Assembly (NCBI GenBank): GCA_030950485.1
Contig: JAUZRK010000015.1
Span: forward strand, 2,010 to 66,009
DNA length: 64,000 bases
Source of the DNA: Candidatus Dojkabacteria bacterium
GTDB taxonomy: Bacteria > Patescibacteriota > Dojkabacteria > J137
Direction: 5' to 3'
Shown: positions 5,926-52,496 of the stretch, piece after piece
Position numbering within the stretch: the stretch's first letter is position 1
Layout: every line of letters starts with the position of its first letter
Made by a program: the position numbers and the translations under genes
Notes under the pieces: generated by a model
What the model saw: only the letters and a program-made list of their open reading frames with translations
Told to the model about the DNA's origin: nothing
The model's database searches: none

Positions 5926-5936
5926 TAAAATCATAT

Positions 5937-6626
5937 ATGAAAAATTCAAATCTAATTGCAAAGGCAAATAATTTAACTAAGATTTATAACGAAGGACAGG
6001 ATAACGAAGTAATAGCAGTTAATAATGTTAGCTTTGAAATAACTGAAGGAGAAATTATAACTGTAATGGGGCCATCAGGAAGTGGAAAAACAACGTTATT
6101 AAACATGATTTCAGGAATTGATGAGGCTAGTAGTGGAGAAATTTATATTGCTGGAGAGAATCTTGTAGAAATGGATGATGATTCAAAAACTAAGTACAGA
6201 GCTAAAAATATGGGATTTATTTTTCAAACATTTAACTTAATACCTGTCTTAAGTGCTGTTGAAAATACAGAAATGCCATTGCTTTTAAATGGTATTAAGA
6301 AAAATGAAGCAAGAAGGATAGCAAGCGAGATGTTAGAAAGAGTAGGGCTAGGAGACAGACTTCATCATAAACCAAATGAGCTTTCAGGAGGACAAAGACA
6401 AAGAGTTACAATCGCACGAGCTATTGTTCATAAACCTGCGGTAATTTGGGCAGATGAACCAACTGGAAATCTTGATACGAAGACTGCTAATAAAGTTTTT
6501 GAGCTTATGCTTGAACTTGCAAAGGAATTTAATCAAACTATTGTTGTTGTAACTCATGATGAGAATATAGCAGATAAGACAGATAGGGTTATCAAAATGG
6601 ATAGCGGTGAGCTGATTAGAGATTAA
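5937..6626 (+). CDS. ABC transporter ATP-binding protein (MacB/LolD-type)
   Basis: Walker A GPSGSGKTT, Q-loop, signature LSGGQRQRVTIARAI, Walker B IWADEPTGNLD, H-loop VVTHD. Confidence 0.85.
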   Translation: MKNSNLIAKANNLTKIYNEGQDNEVIAVNNVSFEITEGEIITVMGPSGSGKTTLLNMISGIDEASSGEIYIAGENLVEMDDDSKTKYRAKNMGFIFQTFNLIPVLSAVENTEMPLLLNGIKKNEARRIASEMLERVGLGDRLHHKPNELSGGQRQRVTIARAIVHKPAVIWADEPTGNLDTKTANKVFELMLELAKEFNQTIVVVTHDENIADKTDRVIKMDSGELIRD

Positions 6627-18081: not shown

Positions 18082-18796
18082 ATGAATAAATCTCTAATAA
18101 TTAAAGAACTTAAATCATATTCAGATAAAGAATCATCAAAGACATCTGAGATTTTTTTATAAAGCATTCAAAGGCGGATACGGCGAGGGTGATAAGTTTA
18201 TAGGAGGTTTAACTGTTCCACTACAAAGAAAAATAGCGGAGAAATATTACAAAGATCTTACTTTGGAAGATATTGCTGAAATGTTAAATTCAAAATTTCA
18301 TGAAATAAGATTTACTGCGACCGAGCTACTAAAATTTAAATATAATTCTAGTAAAGAGATTACTGAAAAGGAGAAGTTAGTAAAATTTTATTTAAAGAAT
18401 TTAGATGGGATAAATAATTGGGATATAGTTGATAATTCTTGCTATAAGATTCTTGGTGATTATTTAGAAAAGAAAAATGATATAAGTATTTTATTAAAGC
18501 TTTCGGAAAGTAAGATTATGTGGGAGCAGAGGATTGCTATGGTTTCGACAATGGCGTTTATAAGAAATAACAAATTAGAGCCGACTTATCAGTTAGCTGA
18601 AATTTTAGTTAATCATAAACATGATTTAATGCATAAAGCAGTGGGATGGTTAATAAGAGAGGCTGGTAAGAGAGATATATCTAGGCTAAGAAATTTTTTA
18701 GATAAACATTATAAAACTATGCCAAGAACTGCTTTAAGATACGCGATTGAGAAGATGGGCAAAGAAGAAAGAGATAAATATCTTGGACGAAGCTAG
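18082..18796 (+). pseudogene. DNA alkylation repair enzyme (AlkD/HEAT-like repeat family) with a frameshift at a T7 run
   Basis: ATG at 18082 gives MNKSLIIKELKSYSDKESSKTSEIFL*. A shift at T7 (18152..18158) continues YKAFKGGYGEGDKFIGGLTVPLQRKIAEKYY...WLIREAGKRD, which matches the family. The ORF caller reports only 18263..18796. Confidence 0.55.
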
Positions 18797-21830: not shown

Positions 21831-24800
21831 TTACCACGTGTACCAAGATGTTCCTTCATAACTAAATACACCAGCCCAGGTTCCTCCAGGTTTTGACTTA
21901 TTAATTACACTGTCCTTATTAGCAGTTCCCATTACATAAAAGTGAACTGTTCCTCCTAACTTTTTATTTCTAAACCTATATACAGCCTCTGTTCCATTTA
22001 CACAACCATTGCTATACCTATAAGATTTCCATGCTTCACCCTCGAATGTATAAGCTCCTGCCCAATCTCCTCCTGGTGCAATTTTACTTTTAAGGTTATC
22101 TCTTTCTGTGTCTCCTAAAAGATAGAAATGTGTCCCAGGGTAATGGTTGTTCCCAAACCTATAGACACTTTCTTCTTTTATTACAATTACATTAACTCTT
22201 TCTGTAACAGTATTATTTGATGTAACTGGATCATTCTGACTTCCACTAGTCTCTGCCTTAAATGTATTATAACCAGTATTATTTAGTTTTAATACAATAT
22301 CAGCTCGAGGCTTAATACCTGGCATAATTGAACTATAATTACATATAACTATCGAACCTGAAAGACTGCAACTAGATGGTTTACTAACTAAACTATATCC
22401 GCTAGGAAGAGTTAATTTAGAAACTACTCCCGTCGCTGTAATTGTTGAACTCATATTATGAGTATTCATAGACATAGTAAACTGTTCTCCTTTACTTACA
22501 GTTGTTTTACTAGGAGTTAAATAAACTCTAAGATCTACTGAACTGCTATTTGTAGGAGGTTCAACCGGCGGAACTACTACAGATCCTTTAAACTCACTAG
22601 GATTTCCGAATGCATAATAAGCAACTCTTTCATGTCTATAATTTATACTACTAAGATCTACACTTTTACCAAGATTGTAGAAGTGTGTTTGCCTACTATT
22701 TTCAGTATTAATGTATCTTTGAACTGGTGATGATCCATTGTAATCATCTTTTAAAGTCTCATCTTTAGTTGTTATCGGCGGATAAGCATAAAAAGCTAAA
22801 GCCGGATTTAAATAGTCAGGTATTGTAATAGAATTCTCAGTTGCAACATAAAGTAACGATTGATATACGTCACTCCAATATTGATAAACAGGTACAGTTC
22901 CAGTCGCTCTATTTTTAAAAGCATAAAAGGCTGTCATATCAAATCTCCAAATTGAAATACTATACTTAACCTGAATTTTATCTTTTGCATCATTTCCAAT
23001 TACGTATAGGTGAGCTGTTTGCCCCTCTATAGGTTTGTAAAATCTGTAAACTGGAGATAATCCAGTAGCAGGATCTACTTCAGCTATTCCAGTATTAGTA
23101 TGAGCTCTACAAGTCACTGCATCATCAATATAAAATATTGGTTGCCCTCCATTCCCAAGACTCCAGCTTATAGTTGGATCATCGTCATATGAATCAGGAC
23201 TGAAATTCTTCTCAGTAGTATAGAAATTTCTAAACGGACTGCTATTCTGAGTAAAAAGGTATACCGGTTTATATAAGTTATCAGGATTAGTTTTATATGC
23301 GAAACATATATTACTTTTATCAAAGTATTCCCCCGTACCAACTAAACTACCTGCTCTTTCATAATCTGCTGTAATCTCTATAACATCTCCTTGTGGTTTA
23401 TAAAGTGTATAAACTTTAAGTGGAGAATTCACCACCTCAGCTACTTCTTTCCCACCAGTTTTATATCCTCCATTACAAATTATTCCAACAGTATCTCTGT
23501 AAACGCAGAACGTATCTCGATCATCAAAGTAAATTGTATTCATTAAAAGCGGTTGGTCTCCAGGGCTTCCAAATTGAATAAGTTCTGAAGTCGAACCGTC
23601 CTTTGCTTTTATTGAAACAGCTGTATCTGTTAGTGCAATTCCTGAGATACTGCTTGTACTTGATCTTGTACTTACGCACCTTAAAGTATCAACGCTGTAA
23701 GAACATATATCGTCAAGCCCATCACTATTAATATCACCAAGAGCTAGGTATCCAAAAGGAATATTAGTCATTGGTGAACTTACAGTTCTGCTTGTATCAA
23801 TTACTCCATTTCTATTCATTGCACATTCAACTCCAGAGGTACTGTACACACATAATTCATCATATCCATCCCCATTTAAATCTCCTATCGCCGGAATACT
23901 TCCAACTTCTCCAAATTTAATTCGAATTACTCCTGGACAAATAAGCTCCCCTTCTCTATAAACACACCTCTCAGAAATACCATCACCGTTAATGTCTCCA
24001 ACTACAGGTAAATCCTTCGGATCTCCTATTTTGTTCTGGCTTTCAAAACCTATCTTACCTGGATCAGTATCACAGTAATAGTTCACTTCTTCTTCATTGA
24101 ACTTACAAAGGTCTTCATACCCATTACCGTCAATATCTTTTTTAAATACAGTTGTATATGGTAGATAAAATTTAAGTTTAAACGGTTCAGCTTTTGCAGT
24201 TAAAGTTACTCCAGAAGAGTTAGTATACTGATACTCAACTGTCCACTCAATTTCTTTGTTTACGGGGAATTGATCAATCTCTAAGAACTGAACTTCAAGC
24301 GCTGAGTTAGCATTAAATTCTTTATCACCATATTTAATTACTGCTTTTTTAACTTCCGAGTTAGTGAATCCTTCAAAATCCCAACTGAAATTTAAAAACT
24401 TCTTTACAGTATCAATATTTACAACAGAATTATCTACAGGACTCTTCAATATTAACTCTGGCGTTATTTTAAAACTAGTCTTTGCAGGATCTGTCCAAAT
24501 ATATTCATTTGTATTCCCGTTATTATTACTATCTGCTATGTCCTTGTAATATGCTGTTATATCCCAAGTTAAGTTTTTTCCTTCAATCGATGCCAAAGTA
24601 GAATAGGGTACTGAAACTGATGTTCCACTAATTTTTCCTTGATAATAGTAAGCTCCAGAAACGCTAGTTGGCCTGTCTCCACTAGCATCATAAATCCATA
24701 ACTCATAGTATCTAGTATCATTCCCGCTGCTGTTTGAGTCAGCTAAGAATTCCTCCCATTCAAATCTAATAGAGTTTCCGTCTGGTTCAGGAGTAGCATT

Positions 24801-26789
24801 TCCTATAGGAGATATAGGTTGTATCATGTTTGGAAAGTTATCTGACTTAAAGGCAATTCCACCTAAATCTACTGATACTGGCGTTCCTTTATAAACTTCA
24901 TTACAAATTGAATCGTCAGAGAATTTCTCCGAAGGATCTATAGACTTACCATATCCAGCAGAGTCTAATGTAGCTGTATCTAAGAATGTGAAATGTAAAT
25001 GGTATCCACATGTCCAGCCAGTATATCCAACTTTACCTATAATTTCTCCCCTTTTAATCTTAGTACCAGGTACTTGTAGTCTATCTGGAATACTATTTTT
25101 CATTAGATGTAAGCATATTGAAGAGGTTTGGTCATCATATTTAATTGTAACCATGTTAACTGTACTAGCATATGAGCTTGAGCAGCCACCTTGGTTCACG
25201 AATTGTTTATATATGCCATCTTCATATTTATCTGTTGCAATGTAAATAGTACCATCGGCTACAGTTGCAATTTCTTCTCCAAAACCCATACCAAAATCCA
25301 ATGCGTACTGATTATAATATTCACCTGTAACATGACTTCCGCCGTCATTTAAAAAGTCCTGACTAACCTCATGACTGATATCCCCTGGCCAAGGCAACTT
25401 ATAAGGACTCTCCTTACACTCCAAAACCACCTCGCTCTGCCCAAATCCAAAATCCAAACTATCACTAATTCCTAAAACCGTAGGGCTACTAATATCTCCA
25501 TATTGCACTAATAACTCAGAATCTACACTATAAGAATCGGTAATATCTCCATTACTTGGAACTCTAAGAATTTCAAAATGTAAGTGACAACCTTGATCCT
25601 CAAGCGGAGCCTCGGGATTATCTCTAACGTATCCAGTATTACCAACAGTACCAATTACCTGATTAGTGAGAATCTGATCTCCAACTTCAACATAAACATC
25701 CCTAAGGTGGTAATAAACAGATATATAACGATCTCCATTACTAAAAGTATGTAATATTTTTACGTAATTTCCAGGAGTATCGCTAGCACTTTCATTTCCT
25801 AAAACAACACCCTCAGTAAAAATCTCTATTATCTCTCCACCAGCAGGAGCTAAAACTTCTGTACCGCAATACAGTCCATAGTCAGTACCATTATGCAGCG
25901 TTCCATCCCTCTCTCCAAATTCAGAAGTAATCGAAACAACATACTCCTCACCAGTCTCAGGGTTAATTTGAATTTCACTATAAGGTCTTTCAAAACTAAC
26001 ACCATCCTCAGGATTTATAACAGGAGTAGAATCAAAACCCTGACATAAAAAGTTATCCAAAGTCCAACCGACAGTACCAGTTAAAGTCATAACCTGCATC
26101 CAATTATTACCTTCAGGATCAATAAAATTATCAATAAGATAAAGCGAATCACCAAGATTTAATTTATATAAAACAATACTTGAATATCTAGGAGAATAAA
26201 ATAATTCAACGCCAGCAGTATTACAAACATGAGCCTCTGTATAAGCTATGACCTCGCTTCCAACTCTAGTTACCTCCGCTAAATTACAACTACTTAACGC
26301 ACTATCAATCTGAGTATAACCAACTCTCCCGTCACTAAGTTCAGCCCTAAACCATTTAGCTCCGTTTATATCAAAAAGATATCCAGTTATTAGAACCTCC
26401 TCAGTACTTGGTAAGATAGTGATCCAATTACTAGAACTTGAAGGTGCCTGATAAATTACTAAACCACTATTTGAATTAACTAAACACGCTACATTACTAC
26501 CAATTCCAAAGTTATCATCGCCAGTATAATCAGGCAGCTCACTATCAGGATTACTTGTAAACTCCTCACCAACTAATCTAATATCAAATCTTAAAGTATC
26601 ATTATTAGACTCTTTTCCAGTTTTATCGTAAGCATCCTTAAACCAAGTCACCCCCTCATGAATAGCATCAATCTCTAAAACATAATCACCATTTTCTTCA
26701 GGAGTTAAAACTTTCAAAGTAATGTTTTTTGTATCGTTATAACTAACTCTAGAACTTAAAATCGCTCTATTATTATCTTTTTTATACAT
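21831..26789 (-). CDS. Giant surface protein (C-terminal 1652-aa segment): SH3b-like region, two M23/LytM-like peptidase domains, FG-GAP/Ca-binding repeats, repeated YRF..HFY modules
   Basis: HNGTDYG...GCHLHFEI and ...GYHLHFTF (M23 HxxxD/HxH motifs). GDINGDGISE, GDLNGDGYDE, GDINSDGLDD repeats. No signal peptide on this segment. Confidence 0.75.
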   Translation of the reverse strand: MYKKDNNRAILSSRVSYNDTKNITLKVLTPEENGDYVLEIDAIHEGVTWFKDAYDKTGKESNNDTLRFDIRLVGEEFTSNPDSELPDYTGDDNFGIGSNVACLVNSNSGLVIYQAPSSSSNWITILPSTEEVLITGYLFDINGAKWFRAELSDGRVGYTQIDSALSSCNLAEVTRVGSEVIAYTEAHVCNTAGVELFYSPRYSSIVLYKLNLGDSLYLIDNFIDPEGNNWMQVMTLTGTVGWTLDNFLCQGFDSTPVINPEDGVSFERPYSEIQINPETGEEYVVSITSEFGERDGTLHNGTDYGLYCGTEVLAPAGGEIIEIFTEGVVLGNESASDTPGNYVKILHTFSNGDRYISVYYHLRDVYVEVGDQILTNQVIGTVGNTGYVRDNPEAPLEDQGCHLHFEILRVPSNGDITDSYSVDSELLVQYGDISSPTVLGISDSLDFGFGQSEVVLECKESPYKLPWPGDISHEVSQDFLNDGGSHVTGEYYNQYALDFGMGFGEEIATVADGTIYIATDKYEDGIYKQFVNQGGCSSSYASTVNMVTIKYDDQTSSICLHLMKNSIPDRLQVPGTKIKRGEIIGKVGYTGWTCGYHLHFTFLDTATLDSAGYGKSIDPSEKFSDDSICNEVYKGTPVSVDLGGIAFKSDNFPNMIQPISPIGNATPEPDGNSIRFEWEEFLADSNSSGNDTRYYELWIYDASGDRPTSVSGAYYYQGKISGTSVSVPYSTLASIEGKNLTWDITAYYKDIADSNNNGNTNEYIWTDPAKTSFKITPELILKSPVDNSVVNIDTVKKFLNFSWDFEGFTNSEVKKAVIKYGDKEFNANSALEVQFLEIDQFPVNKEIEWTVEYQYTNSSGVTLTAKAEPFKLKFYLPYTTVFKKDIDGNGYEDLCKFNEEEVNYYCDTDPGKIGFESQNKIGDPKDLPVVGDINGDGISERCVYREGELICPGVIRIKFGEVGSIPAIGDLNGDGYDELCVYSTSGVECAMNRNGVIDTSRTVSSPMTNIPFGYLALGDINSDGLDDICSYSVDTLRCVSTRSSTSSISGIALTDTAVSIKAKDGSTSELIQFGSPGDQPLLMNTIYFDDRDTFCVYRDTVGIICNGGYKTGGKEVAEVVNSPLKVYTLYKPQGDVIEITADYERAGSLVGTGEYFDKSNICFAYKTNPDNLYKPVYLFTQNSSPFRNFYTTEKNFSPDSYDDDPTISWSLGNGGQPIFYIDDAVTCRAHTNTGIAEVDPATGLSPVYRFYKPIEGQTAHLYVIGNDAKDKIQVKYSISIWRFDMTAFYAFKNRATGTVPVYQYWSDVYQSLLYVATENSITIPDYLNPALAFYAYPPITTKDETLKDDYNGSSPVQRYINTENSRQTHFYNLGKSVDLSSINYRHERVAYYAFGNPSEFKGSVVVPPVEPPTNSSSVDLRVYLTPSKTTVSKGEQFTMSMNTHNMSSTITATGVVSKLTLPSGYSLVSKPSSCSLSGSIVICNYSSIMPGIKPRADIVLKLNNTGYNTFKAETSGSQNDPVTSNNTVTERVNVIVIKEESVYRFGNNHYPGTHFYLLGDTERDNLKSKIAPGGDWAGAYTFEGEAWKSYRYSNGCVNGTEAVYRFRNKKLGGTVHFYVMGTANKDSVINKSKPGGTWAGVFSYEGTSWYTW

Positions 26790-26978
26790 TGTAGTAGTAC
26801 CATCACTATTTAATAAAAGCCAATGATAAGAAATACTAACTGGGTTGTTAAGTCCTTCAATAACCGGGTACCAATTTAATGATCCAGTATTTTTAATAAT
26901 GAACTCTATATTAAATTCATTTGAAGTATTAAATTCAACTGGTAGATCTATTATTCCATAGTTACCACTTTCTACTTA

Positions 26979-27899
26979 TTCATCTTCTAAATATTCAATA
27001 CTATAAATAGGTATTTCAGGCAGAGTAGGAGTATCATTATCCCCACTCCCTGATCCATCTCCTGTATTAGGATCCCCATTTTCACCATTAGTCCCATCAT
27101 CAGGATTCTCTGTACTTTCTTTAATAATGAAAATTGAATCACTATAAACTTCAGAAATATTTCCAGCAGTATCTTTATACTTTACAAAAACATCAGCACT
27201 TCCAAACTCTATAGCAAAATCAAAACTCTCAAGTATGATCGAATGATTTTCTTCACCATTATCTGGAAAATTAGCCCATTCACTCCAAGTCGAAGAATCA
27301 GTGCTTATTGAGTAAGATACTGCAGTTTGAAAAATCTTAGCTTCTACAGGAGGTACGCATTCTCCAAGATAGTCACCATGTTCAAGGTGAGAATCGAGTG
27401 CATTTTCTGAAATTGTTATCTCGTATTTATTTTCTGGATTTCCATTTGGAATATGACAAATCTCAACTTTTAGTTTTTTAGTTTCTGTATCTACCTTATC
27501 ATTCTTCTTTTCCTGTCCTAAACCTTCTTCATCTGCTGGTTCAGAGGTGTTCCCCACCTCTAAATCTTTCCCATCGTCATTATCTAGACTTTCGATTTCC
27601 CCTGCTTCGTCAGTACACAAACCTAAATAATCACCATGTTCAAGATGAGAATCTAAAGCGCTTTCAGAAACTGAAATCTCATGAGCTACTTCATTACCTA
27701 GTTCGGGTTTATGGAATATTTCAACCTTACTTCCTTCTGAATCAGTTTCTGTAGTTTCTGGTAAGATCTCTTTAATAAATGAATCGTATGAATTTAAATA
27801 TATATTTACAATGCTTGAATCTGAGATTTCATCATTGCCATCAAGTGCTTTTATGTCTATAGAACCACTTGGCTTCCCTTGATCTAAAATTATTCTATC
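26979..27899 (-). CDS. Middle segment of the same giant protein, containing two HIPNGNPENKYEIT..ALDSHLEHGDYLG repeats
   Basis: Same frame as 21831..26789, separated only by a TAA at 26976..26978. A 93-codon open stretch upstream of its TTG lacks any start codon and runs back to the TGA at 27900..27902. Confidence 0.55.
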
Positions 27900-28298
27900 T
27901 CAAGATGAAACTGAGCTAATCTCGTCAACCTTAACCTCTATACAAATCTCATGTTCATCCTCGACTGTAGGAATATATCCAATTCGAGATAAATAACTTC
28001 CGCCTTCGTCTTCAAATATCTCTACCTCTTCAAATTCGCTCCATCCAGAATTATCTGAAAATTTATACTTTGCAAAACTAGGTGTAAAACCTTCGCTTAA
28101 ATAAGTTTTTGTATTTACTAAAACCTTATTTGTGAACTTATTATCTAAATAAGTATCTGAACTTGGATTTACAACTAATGAAACGGAATTAGCTGCTGGA
28201 TCAATTACTTCTTGTGCTTTTACTGCAGGTATTAAGCCAACTAATGGCGAAAGTAAAATCTGCAATAATAATATTAATGTTAATAATTTATTTTTCAT
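27900..28298 (-). CDS. N-terminal signal-peptide segment of the same giant protein (ends at an in-frame TGA)
   Basis: Signal peptide MKNKLLTLILLLQILLSPLVGLIPAVKAQE. The TGA at 27900..27902 is in frame with the downstream segments. Confidence 0.55.
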   Translation of the reverse strand: MKNKLLTLILLLQILLSPLVGLIPAVKAQEVIDPAANSVSLVVNPSSDTYLDNKFTNKVLVNTKTYLSEGFTPSFAKYKFSDNSGWSEFEEVEIFEDEGGSYLSRIGYIPTVEDEHEICIEVKVDEISSVSS

Positions 28299-28959: not shown

Positions 28960-29103
28960 AATATTTGTTAATAAAATAATTAATGTATATATTATCCAGA
29001 TAGACGTATTCGGATAGTATCAAAAAAAAAGAAAGATAACATTGCATTGCAGCGCAAGTTTTCTGACAAAAGTGAAGAAATAATGAAGTAGAGTCTCAAA
29101 AGG

Positions 29104-29138
29104 TACAAAAATAGGGCACAATCGAAATTGTGCCCTAT
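29104..29138 (-). terminator. Rho-independent terminator for the zwf-gnd gene
   Basis: Perfect 11-bp stem TAGGGCACAAT/ATTGTGCCCTA with loop CGAA, followed by T5 in minus orientation. Confidence 0.7.
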
Positions 29139-29156
29139 GAAAATTAAAACTATGAA

Positions 29157-31460
29157 CTATTTCCTCACATCATGCCCACCAAACTGGTTTCTAAGTGCAG
29201 AAACAACTTGTCCAATATAGCTAGGATTACTTTTTGAATCTATTCTAAACTGCAAAGCATCTTCAATAACCTTTACTAATATGTCGATCTCTTTTGCAGC
29301 TTCAACAGTCCATTTTCCTTCGCCGTTACTATCAACTTCGCCGGAAATATTTTCTAAAGTAACTCCATCTTGATCAAAAGCTTTTAATAACCAACCAATC
29401 AATCTAGATTGGATAACACTACCTTTATTATAAATTTCAGAAACATCTTTTAGATTTAAGTTGAAATTTGATTTTCTTAAGACCTCAAAGCCTTCTGCAA
29501 TAGCCTGCATCATTCCATATTCAATTCCATTATGTACCATTTTTACAAAATGACCAGCTCCAGCTCCTTCAAAGAACTTATAACCACAAGGGAATGATAT
29601 CTGTTTAAACAATTCTTCAGTATGTAAGAAATTAGTATAATTCCCACCAATCATTGCGCAAGCACTATTTCTAGCACCACTAGGACCTCCTGAGATTCCA
29701 ACATCAATAAAATTAATGCCCTTCTGTTCAATTACCTCATATCTTTTAATAGTATTTTTATAATTTGAATTTCCAGCATCAATTAAATAATCTCCAGGCT
29801 CTAAATAATTTATTAATCCATCTTTAGCAACTAAAACATCTTCTACCGCATCGCCAGATGGAACCATAACCCAAATAATTCTAGGTGCTTTAAGTTTTTC
29901 TACTAATTCTTTATATGAATAAGCTCCTTCTCCTCCTAATCCAACAAAATTATCAATCTTATCTTTAGACCGATTATAAGCTATAACTTTCCAACCTTCT
30001 TCTAAAAGTTGTTCTGCAATACCTTGTCCCATTTTGCCTAAACCAACTACACCTATTTCTTTATTAGTTTTGTACGTGAACTTCTCATTAATGTAGTTAG
30101 ATGATTCAATAGCCTTATCTGAGTTTTGTTTATAGGTTTCTAGAGCAACTACATTATCATCCCAAGCGTTTACAATTGGATCAATAAATCTCCATGAAGC
30201 TAATACTTCTTTAAAACTTACAAACCAGGTCTGTTTTCCATGTATTACATCTAAAATTCCAATTTTGTATTCATCTAAGTACTGCTTTCTCTCCTTTGAT
30301 TCAAGAATCTTGCATTCTAGATTATCCCCATTGGCATACGACATCATATCGAAATTTATAGATAGATTTTCTTTAGGAGGAAGATTGAATTTAATATAAT
30401 TTTCTAAATTTTCAACTCCAAGATCTTTATGTGCTTTATCTACTTCTACTTCTCTAAATGTAATTTTTACATATTTTTCTTCGCTAGGAAGTTTTTTTCC
30501 TGACTGAATAATAATAGGTACATTTCTCCATTTAGGCATATCAATATAAAACTTTATTTTAAAGAATGTTTCTTTATTAGACTTTTTGTTAACACCGTCT
30601 ATTTCTCTGTATCCTTTATACTGAGCTCTATAGGTGTTATATTTTATCTCCTCAATATTCAATATTTTAAGTCTTGAAAGTAAATCAGCTCTCGCGCTTC
30701 TAATCTCTGCTGAACTAAAATCAACAGGCTTATCCATTGTTAATAAAGCTACTATTTGCAGAATATGATTTTGTCCTACGTCTTTTAATGTTCCTACACT
30801 ATCATAGAAGGCTCCTCTAGTTTCAACTCCGAAATCTTCATTTAAAACGATTTCAATTTTCTCTATTGAATCATTATCCCAGGCGAATTTATAAATAGAA
30901 TTGAAAAATCTTAATGCAAAGATATTTCTTACAATTCCCTTATGAAGATAGTGGTCAATTAAGAAAGTTTCTTCTTCACTAAAGCATGACTCTAAGAGTC
31001 TATTGATTTTTATTGCGCTTAAAAAATCAGTTCCTATTGGTTTCTCAACTATAATCCTAATATTTGTATCTTTAAATTCACCTCTAATATTTTTTAGATT
31101 ACCGATAATATCTGAATATGCATCTCCTCTTACAGCAAGATGGAAGATAGTATTTGAAGTAGAGTTCTTTAGTATTAATTTGCTTAACTCCTCATATCCT
31201 TTTGGATCATTAAAATCAGTTGAAACAAATTCTATTATTTCAAGGAATTTTTCAGTGCTTTCGCTGTAGTTATGAAGAACTTGTGTCTTTAGATATTCTC
31301 TAAATTCTTTATTATCAAAGGTTCTCCGAGAGATTCCTATAATTTTGAAATTTTTTGAAAGCTTATTTTCTTTATATAGTTCGAAGAGGGCTGGGAGGAT
31401 CTTCTTTTTAGCAAGATCTCCAGTTGCACCAAATAAAGCGAATGTTGCTGAGTTATCCAT
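29157..31460 (-). CDS. Fused glucose-6-phosphate dehydrogenase (N-terminal) and short-type 6-phosphogluconate dehydrogenase (C-terminal)
   Basis: N-terminus has FALFGATGDLAKKK (G6PD NADP site), IDHYLHK (DHYLGK motif) and RGAFYD. C-terminus has EIGVVGLGKMGQGIAEQL (Rossmann fold) and the 6PGD signature GAGAGHFVKMVHNGIEYGMMQAIAEGF. 767 aa in one ORF. Confidence 0.8.
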   Translation of the reverse strand: MDNSATFALFGATGDLAKKKILPALFELYKENKLSKNFKIIGISRRTFDNKEFREYLKTQVLHNYSESTEKFLEIIEFVSTDFNDPKGYEELSKLILKNSTSNTIFHLAVRGDAYSDIIGNLKNIRGEFKDTNIRIIVEKPIGTDFLSAIKINRLLESCFSEEETFLIDHYLHKGIVRNIFALRFFNSIYKFAWDNDSIEKIEIVLNEDFGVETRGAFYDSVGTLKDVGQNHILQIVALLTMDKPVDFSSAEIRSARADLLSRLKILNIEEIKYNTYRAQYKGYREIDGVNKKSNKETFFKIKFYIDMPKWRNVPIIIQSGKKLPSEEKYVKITFREVEVDKAHKDLGVENLENYIKFNLPPKENLSINFDMMSYANGDNLECKILESKERKQYLDEYKIGILDVIHGKQTWFVSFKEVLASWRFIDPIVNAWDDNVVALETYKQNSDKAIESSNYINEKFTYKTNKEIGVVGLGKMGQGIAEQLLEEGWKVIAYNRSKDKIDNFVGLGGEGAYSYKELVEKLKAPRIIWVMVPSGDAVEDVLVAKDGLINYLEPGDYLIDAGNSNYKNTIKRYEVIEQKGINFIDVGISGGPSGARNSACAMIGGNYTNFLHTEELFKQISFPCGYKFFEGAGAGHFVKMVHNGIEYGMMQAIAEGFEVLRKSNFNLNLKDVSEIYNKGSVIQSRLIGWLLKAFDQDGVTLENISGEVDSNGEGKWTVEAAKEIDILVKVIEDALQFRIDSKSNPSYIGQVVSALRNQFGGHDVRK

Positions 31461-31562: not shown

Positions 31563-32786
31563 CTAAGCAGCCTGTACTATAGGTTTACCTTTACTGTTAG
31601 TATCAGATCTCTTCATAAAATCGGCTCTGTCAGATTTCTCAAAATCTCCTACTGGGCTAATATTTAATTGAGTATTGTAACTTGTAGGTAGACCTTGGGG
31701 ATCTGAAATTGTGAATACAATATTTGGTATTTGACCAGAATAATTTAAATCAGTAGGTGTAAAGGTTACATCTCCTGTTCTATTATTCACTGTGAATGTC
31801 CCGATACTATCTTCATTACCTACTTCTACAGGTGAAAAATCCTCATCTAACCCCACAGTAGTTATACCTCCAGTAAATGGAATTATATTTCCATCAATTG
31901 TAATGTTTGATAGTCTCAATTCGTTTAAATTATTGTCAACATCTTCAATTATTTCTATATTATCTTGGTCAGTGAAGGCATTAAATCTAGCTTCCTCTGT
32001 TTGATCAAAATTTAGAACCCTTCCGTTTGTTCCAAAATCTCTAATCACTTCAGGTTCATCATTAACTGAGCCAACAAAGACTCCATTAACAGCTACTGTA
32101 GTAGTTCCTCCACCAGAATCACTTACTCCAAAAACAAATCTTGGAACTTCACCATGAAAATTTAACTCAGGTGTGAAGTTTACGATACCAGTTTCTGGAT
32201 CTACCTCAATATGACCGACTATATTATTACCATCTGCGTCGTAGATTGCTACAGGTTCTTTAAAATCACTTGAAATATGAATTGTATCTTCTCCTGTGAT
32301 AACTCTAACGTCTGTGATTCTTGGGACATCTCCTTCATCAATATTTTCAACATAATCAAAGACACTTATTATAGAAGTAGTATCTTCTTCAATTTTTATC
32401 GTAGGTACGTTTTTTATTGTTGTAGGTGCGTCATTAACAGGATCTACTATTATATCTAATCTTTGAGATGCTGTTGAAATTCCGTCACTAACATTTACTT
32501 CAACATAAGGAACTGCTCCATTAAAGTTTTCAGTTGATCTAAAGAAAATATTTTCAGTTCCATTATTAACACTCAGTGTCCCAATAATTTCCCCTTTTGC
32601 ATTTAGTACCTCAATATTATTGGCACCCCCAGTTACTCCTATTGTCTCTCCATTAATTACTACATCAGTTATATTAAGAGCATCTCCACCAACATCAGTT
32701 ACATTATCAAATACATTATTTACAAAGATGTTTGTATCTTCGTTACCGGTTACCTCAATCGTGCTTATTGCTACTACGGGGCATCA
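31563..32786 (-). CDS. C-terminal segment of the VNDAP-repeat adhesin (frameshifted continuation of 32774..35578)
   Basis: The frame is open from 32783 to 31563 with no start codon. It reads ..VVAISTIEVTGNEDTNIFVNNVFDN.. directly after the ...PVNDAP* end of the upstream ORF. The GTG reported as a start is internal. Confidence 0.55.
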
Positions 32787-35578
32787 TTAACCGGAGTTAC
32801 AGTAATATCTAGCAATGTTGAATCGTATTCACCATTCCCGTCTCCAACATAAACTCTTGGCATCTCTGGAGTTCCATTATAATCCTGCGCTGGATCAAAC
32901 CAAGTACTTCCATCAGATGCTATAGCTAAGGTTCCTGCAATTACAGTGTTGTCCGCGGAGTCATTTACTGGTATAAATGTATATCCTGTCTGATCTAGAT
33001 AATGCCACTCATTGTTAATATAAACGGCAGCTACATTTAAGTTATCTCCATCAACATCAGTAAAATTATCTAATACATTAGGTAGTTGAGCAAAGTCTGT
33101 GAAATCACTAGAATAATCTTCTTCAATTTCAAATGGAATAGTTGGACTAAGTGCTTCGGGAGCGTCATTAACAGCAGCAGCTGATGTAGTAGCTGTAAAA
33201 CTAGTCCCTCCTGCTAAAGAAACTGTAATAGTTCCTATATCACCATTAAAGTTTTCAGGGGTAACTATGCTAACATCTCCATTTTTGCTTACTAATATTG
33301 CTACTGTTTCACCAGTTTCTAATGTTATATTTGTTGGCGAACCAATTTTGATTTCAACATCTCCAATTGTAATAGACTCAATTTGTACAGAGCCATTCAT
33401 ACTATCGAAATTATCTTTGATATTTCCAACTATATTCCAATCGTTATTTCCATCTTCATTTGAATCATAATCTTCTACTGTAGTTAGTGTAAGATTATCA
33501 TCATGAATTATTGGAGGCAATACTTCAAGTAAACCTTGAACATACTCTGAGTTATAACTATTGCTTTGCCAAATTACTTCTCCAGTACTATTAGTAGTAT
33601 GAGTCATTCTAGTTACTCCAGACTCATCTTCAATAAAGTAGTATTTATTACCTGCAGTATCCTCAGTAAAACCATACTCTATAGTTTCTGTTCCTATGTC
33701 TGTTACTCTTGTAAACTCATTTAGAGTAATAGTATCTCTTGTTAATTCTACTGTTTCGCCAGTTTCTTCATTAACAATAATTGCAGGCTCTCCTTCTTCA
33801 GTGTATAGAATTGCATAATCTATATTTAGCTCTGGTCTAACTGTAAAGTCTCCTCCAATAGAGTCTTTGTCGTGATAGTAAGTCTCACCATCTTGCTCTA
33901 CCGGATATAAGTTTCTTCCATCATCAGTTACAATAACTTCTCCTTCAACATAATTGAAACTATTACCTGGATCTCCGTAAACTAGAACTGCATCATCATT
34001 TGAATTTATATAGCTAACACTACTAATATAAGTACCATTAACTGTAATTTCTAATTGTTCATGTCCACCATTGTTGGTAGGTGCATATATTGTATAGTCA
34101 TTACTTCCATCTACATTCTCACTAATAGGAACAAATGTCGTCTCATTACTTCCATTTGATGAATCTTGGATGTAAAATCCAACAACTTCGTCCGCTTCAT
34201 TTGTCGCTACAAATACTGTATCGTTACCTTTTGCTATTCCTGCATTTCCACTTAATACAACTTGTTCACCTGCGTTATCAACAGTAATATGAGTAACTCC
34301 AGCAGCTTCTGCTAATTCACTATTTGTAACTATAAGAAGATTATCATCAGTATCATTATCTAATATTATATAGCCATCATCATTGTCCACTTCTATAGAA
34401 CCCAGCGGATTAGTATAAACTGTTTGTGCAGTTGCATTTGTAGTAGTGCTGCTTTGAATTTGGGCTATAGTTAAGTCAGCTACTGTTGTTTCAAGATAAT
34501 TAGTATCTCCCTCTCCCGATGCTACCCATCCAGTGTGCTCAGAACCAATGTTATCTTCGAAAGTAACTTCTAACCATGTAATACCTTCGTTATAAACGCT
34601 ATTGCCTGTTAGAGTTAAAGTATCTCCATCTGATATTGTAACTTCTGTATATCCATCTGGGTAAGTTACTTCATCAGAATTTGTTGAAGGGAAGCTTCTG
34701 AAATTTAAGTCAGCTTCGTTCGTAGCAACAGTTACAGTGGTATTAGCTTCGTGCTCTACTCTAGTATGAGTATTCTCATTACCTGATACAGTTTTGCTAA
34801 ATCTCCTATTTGTATGTTTATCATCATTACTATCTTTATCAGTACTATCACTAGAATGTTTTGATCTTACAGCCTTTATATGTTTATTTTCTTCTTTAGA
34901 TTCATCAGTTACAGTTAATGCTATTTTTGCAACACTTACTGTTCCATCCTTATTATCAATAATCTTATCTGTAACGATTTCTTTGTGATTTGCTGATAGT
35001 ATTTCAATCTCCTCTTGCTTACCTGCATCATCAAAAATTATCATTTTCGTAGATCCACCTTTGCTCGTATCTCTTGGATCATTAGGTGTAAACTTGAAGA
35101 TATTCTCACCTTCTTTGAAATAAACTGAACCATCTTTGTCTACTAATGTGGTATCGGTTTGTTTAAGTTCTTCTCTTAAATCTACTTTACTCGGGTCATA
35201 AACGATTATGTTTAATTGAGAAGCTACATATAACTGTATAGTTCTTAACATTAAATCAACTCTAGATTGAGCTAATTCAATATTTTCTTCTATTTGATCT
35301 CCTGCTTTTGCTAGAGATAACTCTAATATTTGAGTGATTTGTTCGCTTAGGAAATAAGCATTGGTAATTGCATTTTCTGTAACTAAAGTGGTTATTTCAC
35401 TTACTTTGTGTGCTAACTGATTTGCATTTAATTTAGCAGTTTCGACTGTATCGTTTACAGCTCTAGCAGTATCGATAAAATGAACTAGCGGAGTTGCCTC
35501 TATAGCTTCCGATGTTTCAGTAGCGTAATGATGCAAGATAGTTCCTAATTGATCATTTAATCCATGAAATGTATGCAT
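32774..35578 (-). CDS. Giant adhesin-like protein with cadherin/VCBS-like VNDAP repeats (N-terminal 934-aa segment)
   Basis: Recurrent ..VNDAP.. motifs. T/S/N/D/G-rich beta-strand repeats. Ends at a G4 run where the frame shifts. Confidence 0.65.
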   Translation of the reverse strand: MHTFHGLNDQLGTILHHYATETSEAIEATPLVHFIDTARAVNDTVETAKLNANQLAHKVSEITTLVTENAITNAYFLSEQITQILELSLAKAGDQIEENIELAQSRVDLMLRTIQLYVASQLNIIVYDPSKVDLREELKQTDTTLVDKDGSVYFKEGENIFKFTPNDPRDTSKGGSTKMIIFDDAGKQEEIEILSANHKEIVTDKIIDNKDGTVSVAKIALTVTDESKEENKHIKAVRSKHSSDSTDKDSNDDKHTNRRFSKTVSGNENTHTRVEHEANTTVTVATNEADLNFRSFPSTNSDEVTYPDGYTEVTISDGDTLTLTGNSVYNEGITWLEVTFEDNIGSEHTGWVASGEGDTNYLETTVADLTIAQIQSSTTTNATAQTVYTNPLGSIEVDNDDGYIILDNDTDDNLLIVTNSELAEAAGVTHITVDNAGEQVVLSGNAGIAKGNDTVFVATNEADEVVGFYIQDSSNGSNETTFVPISENVDGSNDYTIYAPTNNGGHEQLEITVNGTYISSVSYINSNDDAVLVYGDPGNSFNYVEGEVIVTDDGRNLYPVEQDGETYYHDKDSIGGDFTVRPELNIDYAILYTEEGEPAIIVNEETGETVELTRDTITLNEFTRVTDIGTETIEYGFTEDTAGNKYYFIEDESGVTRMTHTTNSTGEVIWQSNSYNSEYVQGLLEVLPPIIHDDNLTLTTVEDYDSNEDGNNDWNIVGNIKDNFDSMNGSVQIESITIGDVEIKIGSPTNITLETGETVAILVSKNGDVSIVTPENFNGDIGTITVSLAGGTSFTATTSAAAVNDAPEALSPTIPFEIEEDYSSDFTDFAQLPNVLDNFTDVDGDNLNVAAVYINNEWHYLDQTGYTFIPVNDSADNTVIAGTLAIASDGSTWFDPAQDYNGTPEMPRVYVGDGNGEYDSTLLDITVTPVNDAP

Positions 35579-35596
35579 AGCATCTTCTACTGTTTC

Positions 35597-36427
35597 TTAT
35601 TGTCCAATATATGAACTTCCTAAAATTGCTGATCCAAATGTTAAATTCGTAAGTCCATTAGCTGCCGCACTAACAGTATGTCCAAAATTTAATGCAGTAC
35701 TAACTGTGGTGCTAAGTGCTGCTCCATGGTAATAAGTTGCAATAAATGTTGCCGCTGAGTTATCTGACTCAAGAGCTGCGTTTCTCATAGACTCGCTTGC
35801 AGTTACTTCAATAGAGAAGTTTTTTAGGCCATACTCTAATGCTAGTCCAACTGGTCCAAATAAAGTCTTTAGTAGGGTGCTTACTCCAGCTGCTCCTGCC
35901 ATCATCATTAATTTTTGATTTGCCAATGCAATTTGCTCAGGATCTCCAGATTTTAATTGCATATCAATTTCTACAAGCATTATTCTCTGTGGGCTATTAG
36001 GATTTCTCAAGCTATTAATCATCTGACCACTTGTATATAAGCTATATACAGAGGCAGCGCTTTGTCCAAAAACTAAAGCCATTCCTCCTCCTGCTATAAA
36101 TCCAAATTTTGCGCCAATTTCAGCTGCTTTAGTAGCTCCCTCTAATGTTACTCCTCCGACACTATTTGCTAGGGTAGATGGTAAAGTCGCTCCTTTTTTA
36201 CTAGCTAGTTTGTATAATTCAACTAACTGAATAGGCTTACCATTAATATCGGTAACTCCCTGCTCTAATGCATTAGCTAATCCTTTAATATTTATAAATT
36301 TGAAATTTGATTGATCTAACTCAATCAATAGTTTGTTTAGTGCTCCATTTTCTAAAAGCGCATTTAATTTATCAGGGTCTAAAGTTCCATCTGCAGTTAA
36401 AAATTTAAAATCATCTTCTAGATTCAT
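35597..36427 (-). CDS. Hypothetical Gly/Ala-rich protein
   Basis: 276 aa. GATKAAEIGAKFGFIAGGGMALVFGQSAASVYSLYTSG region. Its TAA stop is in frame with, and 6 codons before, the ATG of the adhesin segment. Confidence 0.4.
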   Translation of the reverse strand: MNLEDDFKFLTADGTLDPDKLNALLENGALNKLLIELDQSNFKFINIKGLANALEQGVTDINGKPIQLVELYKLASKKGATLPSTLANSVGGVTLEGATKAAEIGAKFGFIAGGGMALVFGQSAASVYSLYTSGQMINSLRNPNSPQRIMLVEIDMQLKSGDPEQIALANQKLMMMAGAAGVSTLLKTLFGPVGLALEYGLKNFSIEVTASESMRNAALESDNSAATFIATYYHGAALSTTVSTALNFGHTVSAAANGLTNLTFGSAILGSSYIGQ

Positions 36428-36447
36428 GTTTATTGTCTTGAAGACAT

Positions 36448-36750
36448 CTAGAAAAGAGGTATCTGTAGCTGTTTTCCTAGTAATTTAAGTTCAATAGATC
36501 TAGCTAATGTTCTAAATCCTGTCTGTGTAAACACTTTAGAAAGAGCTGTTTCTGAAAACGCTCTTATTTCAGAGCTTGCCATTCTTACAGACTCTCTGGC
36601 AGAATTCCACATGTTTCCTACTCTTTGGAAAAAGCCAACTTCTTCATTTTCTGTTATTTCTCTTTGAACTATGTTGCCTGTATGAGCAGCTATAGTTGTT
36701 TTCATTGCAATGCTTTGTAAATCCTCATCACCGAAAACTATTCTGGCCAT
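36448..36750 (-). CDS. Hypothetical protein
   Basis: 100-aa ORF upstream in the same transcriptional direction as the adhesin block. Confidence 0.3.
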   Translation of the reverse strand: MARIVFGDEDLQSIAMKTTIAAHTGNIVQREITENEEVGFFQRVGNMWNSARESVRMASSEIRAFSETALSKVFTQTGFRTLARSIELKLLGKQLQIPLF

Positions 36751-40961: not shown

Positions 40962-41873
40962 ATGGCAATAAACACTAAGGCAATCAAAACAAGGATTCAA
41001 TCAGTAGAGAACACGAAGAAGATAACTCGTGCAATGCAGATGATTGCTGCGGTAAAAATGAAGAAGGCTGTTAATGCAGCTATTAGAACAAGAGAATATA
41101 GTGAACTTTCTTACGATCTTATGAGAAATCTAGCAGGCACTGAGCTCAATCATCCCTTAGCAAAAATACGTAAGGCAAAGAACTGTCTTCTTATAGTTCA
41201 TACTTCAAATAGAGGCCTTTGCGGTAGTTACAATGCTAATATAATTAGATCAGTAAGTGAATATATTGATAATAACTCTGATGTTAATTTTTCAATGATT
41301 GCTTTAGGTAATAAAGCAGCAAGGGTAGCTAAAAATTATAATCTGGAATTAGTTGGATTATATGAAAAGTTAAATGAGAACCCTAAATATGAAGATATAA
41401 TTCCTCTTGCTAAGGAAATGACTGATAAATTTATTGATAACGATATAGATCAAGTCATTGTAGCTTATACAAATTATATTTCAGGACTAAATCAACAAGT
41501 AGAATTACGTGAGATCTTACCTTTCAAGAAAAAATCTATAGAAGATTTTTATAAGAATGCAGGATCAAGAAATGAAAGTGAAGAAATTGGTGAAAAAGGA
41601 ATTGATTCAAAAGATGAATATGAATTTGAACCAAAAAAATCAGAGGTTCTAAAATATATAATTCCGATACTTGTAGAAATACAACTTTATCAAGCATTAT
41701 TAGAATCAACTGCAAGTGAGCATAGTAGTAGGATGATTGCTATGAAAAATGCAAGCGATGCTGCAGGAGATATGATTGATGACTTAACTTTACAATTTAA
41801 TAAAGGTAGACAGGCTGCTATTACACAAGAAATTAGTGAAATAGTTGCAGGAGCATCTGCTTTAGATAACTAA
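40962..41873 (+). CDS. atpG: F0F1 ATP synthase subunit gamma
   Basis: N-terminal IKTRIQSVENTKKITRAMQMIAAVKMKKA and C-terminal ..ITQEISEIVAGASAL helices. Length is as expected. Confidence 0.85.
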   Translation: MAINTKAIKTRIQSVENTKKITRAMQMIAAVKMKKAVNAAIRTREYSELSYDLMRNLAGTELNHPLAKIRKAKNCLLIVHTSNRGLCGSYNANIIRSVSEYIDNNSDVNFSMIALGNKAARVAKNYNLELVGLYEKLNENPKYEDIIPLAKEMTDKFIDNDIDQVIVAYTNYISGLNQQVELREILPFKKKSIEDFYKNAGSRNESEEIGEKGIDSKDEYEFEPKKSEVLKYIIPILVEIQLYQALLESTASEHSSRMIAMKNASDAAGDMIDDLTLQFNKGRQAAITQEISEIVAGASALDN

Positions 41874-42405
41874 TGAGAGAAATAGAACTTAAATATAAGA
41901 TAAATGATAACCAAGATATAATTGGAATTCTTAATTCGTTAGGTTGTGATTTATCTGGTGAGATAGTTCAGAAGGATAAGGTTTACTCTAGAAAAATTGA
42001 TAATAAACATAGTGTTTTTAGAATAAGAACTCAAGAATATAGAGGAATTGAAAAGACTCTGTTGACATTAAAGCAAGATATTACTAGCGAGTTAGATTGT
42101 CTTGAAAGTGAAATTGAAGTTGACGATGCGGATAAGACTGAAGAAATGTTGGAATATTGGGATTTAAATTTGGAGTTGAGGTAAGTAAGAAGAGAAGAAA
42201 GGGGAATTGGAGAGGTGTTACTGTTTGTTTTGATACAGTAGAAGGACTGGGAGATTTCATAGAGCTAGAATATCTTACTGACGCAGAAGACGTAGACGCT
42301 GAACTTGAGATTAAAAAATTAGAAGGAAGAATGAGCGAAACTGGCATTGAAGGTTACGAAAGAGTATTTAAAGGATACGATAGCTTATTGCTAGAAAAAA
42401 AATAA
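41873..42405 (+). pseudogene. CYTH-domain protein (CyaB/thiamine-triphosphatase-like) inserted in the atp operon, frameshifted
   Basis: EIELKYKI...FRIRT...LTLKQ then, after a -1 shift near 42155..42160, GFKFGVEVSKKRRKGNWRGVTVCFDTVEGLGDFIELE. These are CYTH motifs. The two ORFs are in different frames and overlap by 28 nt. Confidence 0.55.
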
Positions 42406-50790: not shown

Positions 50791-52496
50791 TCAATTTTGT
50801 TTAGTTCTTTTTGTAAAGTTAGCAATTAAGAAAAATAGATTTAATACACCTATTCTTCCAAATAGCATTAAGGTTATCATTACCCATTTAGATCCAATAC
50901 TGAAAGCTGCATAGCCTCCGGCTGGACCCTCATTTATAGCTCCAAAGAAGTCTGTTGGTCCAATATTTCCAAGATTTGCAATTGAAGCATTAAAGGCTGT
51001 AGCGAAGTCTATGAATTTTGAATCAAAGATTAAAATTAATATACCTCCTGCTATAAACAATATAAAGTAAAAAGCTATGTTTACAGTGATTAAAGACATA
51101 TCTCGTCTATTAAATTTACTCTCATCAATTTTTATATCTTGAAACTCATGCTTTCCTGATATAAAGTTACTAACTTCATTTTAATGTTGATAAAAAAAGC
51201 AATAAACCTTTTTACTTTAAGCCCTCCTCCAGTAGATCCAACTGTTCCACCTACAAAATAAACTATGAAAAGAATAGTTACAGCAATTATTGGCCACCCT
51301 GTAAAATCCCAATTTTCTAGTCCTGTAGTAGAAATTACAGTACCAACAGCAAAGAACGAGTATCTTAAAGTTTCTTCAATATTTGAATAATAATTATAGT
51401 GCCACAGGGTTAATGCTATTAGGCCGGATATTAAAAAGCTTAAAGCTATATATACTTTCATTTCTGTATTTTTCCAAAATGCTTTTTTATCTTTCTTGTA
51501 AAAGAATATATACCAAACTCCAGAATTTGCACCACTAGCAAACATAAAGAAAGTAATTATCCATTCCGAGACTGGGTTCTGAAGTCCCCCCATTATAAAA
51601 TGACCACTTTCATCAAGAATAAGTTCCCCATTCTCAGACACCTCAGGTAGACCTGCGATGTTTCCGTAGTGACTAAATCCTCCAGTACCTAATGTTGAAA
51701 ATGAATGTGTAATAGAATCATAAGCATTATCATACCAATGTTCGTAAGGCTGTTGTCTAAAGAATTGTCCCGAGATTAACATTAGAACAATCATTATAAG
51801 TGTTAATAGGCCGTAAGTTTTTATAAAGTCAAATCCTGAGTTTCTTGCTTCATGTTCATCTTTAAATTCTGTAGCTTCAGGTGATTCAACTTCTGCATTT
51901 ATTAGATTAAATCTACTATATTTAAAATTATTTAATAGCGTTATGGTCATATATACAAGTCCCATTCCTCCAATCCAGTGAGAGACTGTTCTCCACATTA
52001 GTACACTTCTTGGTAATGATTCAATATCTAACAAAATAGTTGACCCTGTTGTAGTTAATCCAGACATTGATTCAAAGAACCCATCAGTAAAGACTCTCAT
52101 CGCACTAAAGGTCTATCCAGTAGGAGAGTTTGGATATCCAGCTAAAATAAATACTATTGCAGAAATTAAACTAGCTATTATCCAAGCATTAACAACTATT
52201 AAGACTGATAACTTAAAATCTATTTTTCTTTCGAAAATATGGTGCCCGTGTAAGTAGTGTCCAATACCAAATAAAATAGCAGCTATACCCGAACCTATAA
52301 ATGTCGGCAGCAGATTCTCGTCTTCAAATCTATTATCATTTATAACTAAATAGAAAAAGCCTATCCCTGCACTGAAAAGTAATCCAAGGAATATACTTAA
52401 TTGAAAGTGCAGTGCTACTATTATCGAATAAAATATGTTTTCATTATATGGTAACTTTTTATCAGTAATAATAACCTTACTTATTAAATAAATCAA
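50791..52496 (-). pseudogene. trkH: TrkH/KtrB-family K+ uptake permease split into three ORFs
   Basis: The family signature runs across 52496..52113, 52100..51132 and 51099..50791, including GLTTTGST, GGLKVKRF..., and SIANLGNIGPT...KWVMITLMLFGRIGVL. A TAG at 52113..52115 is in frame between fragments 1 and 2. Fragments 2 and 3 are joined by a 1-nt frameshift near 51130..51136. Confidence 0.75.

Follow-up and report, generated by a model that had tools for sequence, protein, structure and literature searches.

The closest described relatives of the putative surface-protein gene reported here belong to the tandem-95 / bacterial cadherin-like repeat family (NCBIfam: NF012211), together with the Pfam families Cadherin_5 (Pfam: PF17892), Cadherin_4 (Pfam: PF17803) and Big_9 (Pfam: PF17963). 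The gene lies on the minus strand of a 64,000 nucleotide stretch of a Candidatus Dojkabacteria bacterium (GCA_030950485.1, contig JAUZRK010000015.1), an organism of the Candidate Phyla Radiation (CPR); in the following we call this whole stretch the window. There, two adjoining open reading frames (ORFs) are one ancestral ORF, broken exactly at a run of four G on the plus strand (G4, or C4 on the coding strand), and by its matches to family models the joined gene is predicted to encode a further tandem-95 / cadherin-like repeat protein, here in a CPR bacterium. What the protein shares with the family are units of ~95-130 residues opened by VNDAP, the pattern ..ED.. after the VNDAP, a D-x-D-G-D acidic loop and, in a model of one unit, an immunoglobulin (Ig)-like beta-sandwich. 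It differs in having just four or five units, which are longer (118-138 aa) and carry an insertion mid-unit, in the attachment of these units to a ~690-residue N-terminal region without homologues, and in its CPR host.

Two further groups of adhesins resemble it in part. The C-terminal halves of the units match the repeat model of the CshA adhesin of Streptococcus gordonii (NCBIfam: TIGR04225, Pfam: PF19076), but unlike CshA the protein has no LPXTG wall anchor, no signal peptide and far fewer repeats. With the giant repeats-in-toxin (RTX) adhesins of the Type 1 Secretion System (T1SS), such as LapA, SiiE, MpIBP and FrhA, it has in common the tandem Ig-like or cadherin-like repeats and the missing N-terminal signal peptide.

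The 5' part of the gene (32774..35578, minus strand, 934 codons and TAG) ends with ...DITVTPVNDAP before its TAG. At the break the coding strand reads GAT GCC CCG TAG TAG, where the C4 run corresponds to the G4 at 32778-32781 of the plus strand. The -1 frame reads VVAISTIEVTGNEDTNIF... from 32777 and is open for 404 codons until the stop at 31563-31565, which gives the 3' part of the gene (31563..32777, minus strand, 404 codons and TAG). From the local base composition the chance of 404 open codons is ~5e-16, and the remaining two frames are interrupted over that stretch by 47 and 65 stops. The downstream frame has no ATG, GTG or TTG until it reaches, 245 codons in, the GTG at 32048. Lacking its own start codon, the tail cannot be a separate gene, and this GTG is an internal codon, not a gene start. 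A TGA immediately upstream of 32783 closes the downstream frame, and the upstream frame ends at 32776. This leaves TGCCCCG (32777..32783, minus strand), which holds the C4 run, as the only interval open in both frames, and places the frame change within the C run or directly beside it. Adding one base, or removing two, within 32777..32783 rejoins the frames. The joined reading is 1,338 aa long with VNDAPVVAISTIEV spanning the junction, and VNDAPVVAISTIEVTGNEDTNIFVNNVFDNVTDVGGDALNITDVVINGETIGVTGGANNIEVLNAK is the predicted tryptic peptide across the break. The initial annotation had described an ORF 32774..35578 that ends ...PVNDAP* at GGGG (32778..32781), a frame that one more G would carry on for about 400 codons to 31563, and a reported GTG start at 32048 that is internal; its coordinates and sequence are correct, and so is its view of the GTG. 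The word 'giant', which it used for the adhesin, is overstated for a joined protein of this length with four units delimited by VND(A/E)P.

The repeats cross the break. Repeats R1 (32792..33172, joined-protein residues 803-929), R2 (32439..32791, residues 930-1047), R3 (32067..32438, residues 1048-1171) and R4 (31653..32066, residues 1172 to ~1309), all on the minus strand, can be aligned with each other and are preceded by a degenerate repeat unit. R2, which has its VNDAP encoded upstream of the break and its beta-sandwich downstream, is an ordinary member of this set. R4 begins with VNDEP and contains the best stretch for both Cadherin_5 and CshA_repeat. Two distant repeat proteins (P0001 and P0002) align unbroken across the junction, with VTPVNDAP followed by VVAISTIEVTGNEDT in the joined protein against VTAVQDPPVARDDVITVQEDT, and the family start VNDAPVA..(t)vxED is reproduced only by the joined reading.

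The family models agree with this. Cadherin_5 matches the 5' piece with 27.0 bits and the 3' piece with 48.6 bits, both above its gathering threshold of 26.5 bits, which answers the suggestion of the initial annotation to compare the gene with cadherin-like families in HMMER. The 5' piece additionally has a Cadherin_4 match of 25.2 bits, and the Pfam matches of the 3' piece are Cadherin_5 (E=7.6e-13) and CshA_repeat (E=1.1e-8). The NCBIfam tandem-95 repeat model NF012211 has a curated cut-off of 90 bits, applied to the whole-protein score. Each piece alone fails it (30.4 bits for the 5' and 79.8 bits for the 3' piece), and the joined C-terminal 604 aa pass with 126.5 bits over 6 stretches. Likewise, the CshA fibril repeat model TIGR04225 (cut-off 60 bits) is passed by the joined protein with 65.7 bits and not by the pieces alone (17.7 and 55.2 bits). 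An AlphaFold2 model of residues 1-118 after the break, built from an alignment of 19 units, is a nine-strand Ig-like beta-sandwich with a predicted local distance difference test (pLDDT) score of 92.8. Foldseek returned for this 118-residue model only generic Ig-like or cadherin-like matches, with a template modelling (TM) score of at most 0.54 and E-values of 3.6e-3 or weaker.

Put together, the gene would encode a surface or extracellular protein of ~1,338 residues. The 5' part would contribute an orphan helical N-terminus, an SH3-like stretch, an orphan beta-rich middle, the degenerate repeat and R1, and the 3' part the remainder of R2, then R3, R4 and a C-terminal tail of 29 residues. Thus a ~690-residue orphan N-terminal region would be followed by one degenerate and four regular repeats, each opened by a VND(A/E)P linker, and the repeats would build a Ca2+-stiffened stalk typical of fibrillar adhesins. 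By analogy with these adhesins the protein probably has an adhesive or stalk function; its location at the cell surface is likewise probable, and no signal peptide is seen. The SH3-like stretch (34514..34711, minus strand, residues 290-355 of the 934-aa piece) is a weak SH3_3 match (E=0.0063) below the cut-off; the copy of the gene in a second assembly, described below, is named 'MAG: SH3 domain-containing protein [Candidatus Dojkabacteria bacterium]' by NCBI, where MAG stands for metagenome-assembled genome.

Beyond its repeats the gene stands alone. A word-indexed search of 5.8 billion proteins found only cadherin-repeat proteins with 26-28% identity, no match to the locus was found in 185,579 species-representative genomes, and the JGI metagenomes gave none either, whether queried with the protein or with a DNA pattern that covers the C run. 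The adhesin N-terminus and a 276-aa ORF upstream of the gene, searched exhaustively with HMMER against 1.84 billion representative proteins, matched only the proteins of the second assembly, GCA_030949735.1, from which all database proteins matching the locus come. In an exact-protein look-up the 934-aa product was unrecorded; the 276-aa product and a 132-aa product of a neighbouring gene are on record in that same assembly. Pfam at permissive thresholds, and likewise PHROGs and NCBIfam, gave nothing meaningful for the adhesin N-terminus, the 276-aa ORF or a 100-aa ORF further upstream, and a PDB sequence search gave no match. The ~690-residue N-terminal region and both upstream ORFs are orphans, without homologues in the databases searched. 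A literature search for the assembly accession had no result.

The initial annotation had proposed that the protein is a T1SS-type adhesin secreted by its C-terminus, and it was right that neither piece has a signal peptide; none is seen at the start of the adhesin, the 276-aa ORF or the 100-aa ORF, whereas a giant protein encoded by the neighbouring gene does start with one. The secretion route that it read from this does not hold. The RTX repeats GGxGxD (HemolysinCabind, Pfam: PF00353) were found in neither piece at E<=0.01 in Pfam. No T1SS C-terminal target domain and no N-terminal retention module were matched in NCBIfam at E<=0.1, which is not absolute proof as T1SS signals are poorly conserved. 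The genes flanking the adhesin are a zwf-gnd fusion, orphan ORFs and the ATP synthase operon, with no T1SS ATP-binding cassette (ABC), membrane fusion protein (MFP) or outer-membrane channel gene among them; the sole ABC system of the window (2686..6626) is of the FtsX/MacB type and 25 kb off. The joined protein ends in ...NISPVGDFEKSDRADFMKRSDTNSKGKPIVQAA, and this C-terminus shows neither an LPXTG motif nor a hydrophobic tail nor a domain of the Type 9 Secretion System (T9SS), so that the check for a T1SS or T9SS signal which had been suggested found neither and the 29-residue tail carries no recognisable sorting signal. CPR bacteria as a group presumably have no outer membrane. We therefore dropped the T1SS-type adhesin, from whose known examples the protein differs in the RTX nonapeptides, the target domain, the retention module, the adjoining ABC/MFP pair and the CPR host.

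Why the frame is broken is best judged from the second assembly, GCA_030949735.1, which NCBI also lists as Candidatus Dojkabacteria. Its contigs L081 and L082 cover positions 17901-46418 of the window, with 99.65% identity for the body of L081 and 99.94% for L082. This is a sibling assembly of the same population. The differences between it and the window are mainly indels of one nucleotide in runs of 1-5 bases, and one of them, a C3/C4 difference at 31391, lies ~170 bases from the stop of the adhesin gene. The two sibling contigs overlap by ~1.1 kb (L081 16650-17814 and L082 1-1150, window 28590-29740). In this overlap the L081 end (last 1.15 kb) is 82% identical to the window and the L082 copy ~99.5%, which indicates that the L081 end is probably an unpolished noisy long read. 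Extra indels of the sibling break genes that are intact in the window.

The reverse is also found. The CYTH gene (41873..42405, plus strand) is split in the window into pieces of 103 aa and 88 codons by one lost A (A2, 42153-42154), and is intact with 183 aa in the sibling (L081, 3993-4544). A T8/T6 difference at ~42402 also alters the C-terminus of CYTH. Further genes of the window are damaged in similar ways: a DNA-alkylation repair gene (18083..18796, plus strand) has its N-terminus cut off by a frame change in the T7 run 18152-18158, a TrkH-type cation transporter gene (50791..52496, minus strand) has a frameshift around 51135-51180, and a gene for a ferric-reductase-like membrane protein (63189..64000, plus strand) is apparently broken twice, first after a short piece MKINKLTLLYSTIVLSYLY*, where the frame changes close to a T run at ~63235, and again at ~63543-63597. 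For the DNA-alkylation repair gene the sibling has the same T7, and its annotators used a CTG start. In total there are at least 7 frameshifts in the 64 kb. Both assemblies are indel-prone, and the fragmentation of genes by homopolymer indels is a documented property of Nanopore(-only) assemblies (PMC9262707).

The indel-rich differences between the sibling and the window, together with the other broken conserved genes, make an uncorrected consensus error the most likely cause of the break. Under this explanation the coding strand would have C4 where C5 would keep the frame, a one-base shortfall in the linker that opens R2. We give a probability of about 0.55 to the break being unprogrammed and most likely a surviving consensus error of an error-prone long-read metagenome assembly, and we infer that an error, and not a true mutation, produced this indel. 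Three observations weigh against it. The sequence at the break site is identical in L081, so that C4 agrees in both assemblies, and a random error would not be shared if the two are independent. A run of four C is also short for a systematic homopolymer miscall. Finally, there are four in-frame stops in the window (TAA 35597, TGA 27900, TAA 26976 and TAG 52113), and errors of the indel type cannot create stops, which means that some of the gene disruptions here may be real mutations.

The shared C4 and the in-frame stops make a real and recent frameshift, fixed in the population, a possibility to be taken seriously, if not the one that we prefer. The gene would then be a young pseudogene whose 404 downstream codons have not yet decayed, or would encode a truncated product of 934 residues that ends after R1. 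The C4 shared by two assemblies fits such a mutation, and the break lies at a domain boundary, where the truncated product could fold. As the in-frame stops cannot be homopolymer miscalls, and the three at loci covered by the sibling (35597, 27900 and 26976) are unchanged there, real disruption is suggested for these; TAG 52113 is outside the coverage of the sibling. This last stop (52113-52115) is inside a conserved stretch of the TrkH-type transporter, ...GYPNSPTG*TFSAMRVFTDGFFESMSGLTTTG... The agreement of the two assemblies is, however, not independent if they share reads, which they may. There is zero decay across 404 AT-rich codons, at least one frameshift of the window (CYTH) is absent from the sibling, and, with at least 7 frameshifts among ~60 genes and several conserved genes hit, pseudogenes would be unusually frequent for a streamlined CPR genome.

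The two stops at 27900 and 26976 belong to the neighbouring giant gene (21831..28298, minus strand), which encodes a secreted protein of ~2,150 residues with a signal peptide, Ig-like domains, an M23 peptidase, FG-GAP, DUF11 and DUF5648 domains. It consists of a 132-aa piece with the signal peptide, TGA 27900-27902, 307 codons, TAA 26976-26978 and 1,715 codons. The first 93 of the 307 codons have no start, and the first 62 of the 1,715 precede any ATG and already begin an Ig-like domain; both of these leaders are plainly coding. Both stops are common to L082 and near apparent domain boundaries. The search for homologues that span them gave only a short HGD..G.C motif. A motif of ~35 residues, (E)ICH.PNGNPEN..EITISENALDSHLEHGDYLG.C, occurs twice in 26979..27899 (minus strand), and short matches to it with 50-68% identity are found in many unrelated secreted proteins, including T9SS-sorted ones.

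Some CPR lineages read TGA as a sense codon. We rejected this code for the window: each of the three stop codons TAA, TAG and TGA ends well-conserved genes, and under translation table 11 no interruption is seen in atpA, atpD, eno, gatA, pgm or zwf-gnd. The stop usage of the window is 35 TAA, 15 TAG and 6 TGA, and no suppressor tRNA was found in it. The window is chromosomal, with ~31% G+C, and carries the ATP synthase operon, eno, pgm, gatA and the zwf-gnd fusion. The latter (29157..31460, minus strand) encodes glucose-6-phosphate dehydrogenase and 6-phosphogluconate dehydrogenase in a single protein of 767 aa, and its full-length relatives (loci L001-L080), mostly from Patescibacteria MAGs, have at most 59% identity.

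The fourth stop, TAA 35597..35599 (minus strand), ends the 276-aa ORF (35597..36427, minus strand) and is, as the initial annotation correctly stated, in frame with the adhesin ATG at 35578 and six codons ahead of it; the base is also present in L081, for which no difference is listed. The ORF could stand as a gene by itself or form an N-terminal module of the adhesin gene. It is predicted to be all-helical with low confidence, and a single-sequence structure model has no usable fold (pLDDT 37.6). Its most frequent residues are L (13.4%), A (12.7%) and G (10.1%), and two segments at about residues 101-130 and 172-198 are rich in Gly and Ala and moderately hydrophobic. The 100-aa ORF (36448..36750, minus strand) heads this cluster of genes on the same strand. 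At 36448..36484 (minus strand) its end and the open leader of the 276-aa frame overlap, which may be chance, and one extra T in a T4 run near 36450 (cctcttttctag) would, speculatively, fuse the two ORFs. We also considered a prophage or tape-measure origin of the cluster and rejected it: PHROGs gave no support, save for the generic M23 domain of the neighbouring gene.

It is thus conceivable, although we regard it as doubtful, that the gene is longer still and that the 276-aa ORF, perhaps with the 100-aa ORF, represents N-terminal modules cut off by TAA 35597 and possibly by an indel in the T run near 36450. The position of the TAA, in frame and only six codons before the ATG, invites this reading, but in-frame spacing occurs by chance in 1 of 3 cases and six open codons are not significant. 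Similarly, the adhesin has no signal peptide and the 276-aa ORF offers two hydrophobic Gly/Ala-rich segments, yet their Kyte-Doolittle maxima of 1.3-1.4 are below the usual transmembrane threshold and even the longest version would still have no signal peptide. The neighbouring giant gene shows, with its two certain in-frame stops and start-less leaders of 93 and 62 codons, that such interruptions occur nearby, and a single added T would join the frames of the 100-aa and 276-aa ORFs. On the other side, a good ATG with an A-rich upstream region directly follows the TAA, as for other genes here, and no homologue with the fused architecture was found. No Shine-Dalgarno-like motif was seen upstream of ~50 genes of the window, whose upstream regions are simply A/T-rich, so the motif is unusable for judging whether a start is independent.

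It is improbable, in our estimate, that the disruptions are both real and tolerated, in such a way that in this Dojkabacteria lineage the two largest genes for surface proteins are divided into segments at domain boundaries, that of the adhesin by the frameshift and the TAA and its neighbour by the TGA and the TAA. The segments may then be expressed through low-level recoding, by read-through or by -1 slippage next to a stop, or as separate modules. Both assemblies share all these disruptions and every downstream frame is preserved, and segmentation is compatible with this evidence.

Two readings that give the C4 run a function are very unlikely. In the first, slipped-strand phase variation, the length of the G/C tract would switch the full-length adhesin on and off. 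A homopolymer located exactly at the frame break of a surface-protein gene recalls the contingency loci of Neisseria, Haemophilus, Campylobacter and Helicobacter, in which the frame is lost at a G/C homopolymer in a surface-protein ORF. Known contingency loci, however, use ~7 or more bases in their G/C tracts. The tract here has 4 and is one of 70 G/C runs of at least 4 bases in the window (six of these within 31563..36750), with no length difference between the two assemblies. Comparable frameshifts also hit housekeeping genes, and homopolymer frameshifts elsewhere in conserved genes place this one in a general class of error or mutation and not in a dedicated switch. The phase-variation site that the initial annotation had raised, with the remark that G4 is short for it, is thus not upheld. 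In the second, a programmed -1 frameshift would let the P-site tRNA-Pro slip from CCG to CCC with TAG in the A site and yield products of 934 and 1,338 residues, for which the stop directly after the C run, the required shift of -1 with possible re-pairing on CCC/CCG and the perfectly kept downstream frame would speak, but the site (GAT GCC CCG TAG) contains no X XXY YYZ heptamer, the 120 nt downstream are not unusually folded (z = +0.68, with a minimum free energy of -18.2 kcal/mol and a mean of -20.25 for shuffled sequences), a Shine-Dalgarno-like stimulator is absent from this genome and there are no close homologues beyond the same population in which conservation could be seen.

If the consensus error is indeed the cause of the break, the finding is mainly a matter of data quality. 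The annotated proteins of 934 aa and 161 aa would have to be merged into one of ~1,338 aa, and the gene counts and 'pseudogene' calls of this Dojkabacteria MAG would be inflated by consensus indels. The gene itself is of modest interest, its product being a large surface protein specific to this lineage of CPR bacteria. Such proteins are candidates for host-cell attachment. Its residual interest lies in the in-frame stops that the two assemblies share in large surface-protein genes. If these genes were truly segmented, an episymbiont could in this way vary or titrate its surface structures, and if the shared stops and the frameshift are real, the locus would bear on how these organisms express giant surface proteins.

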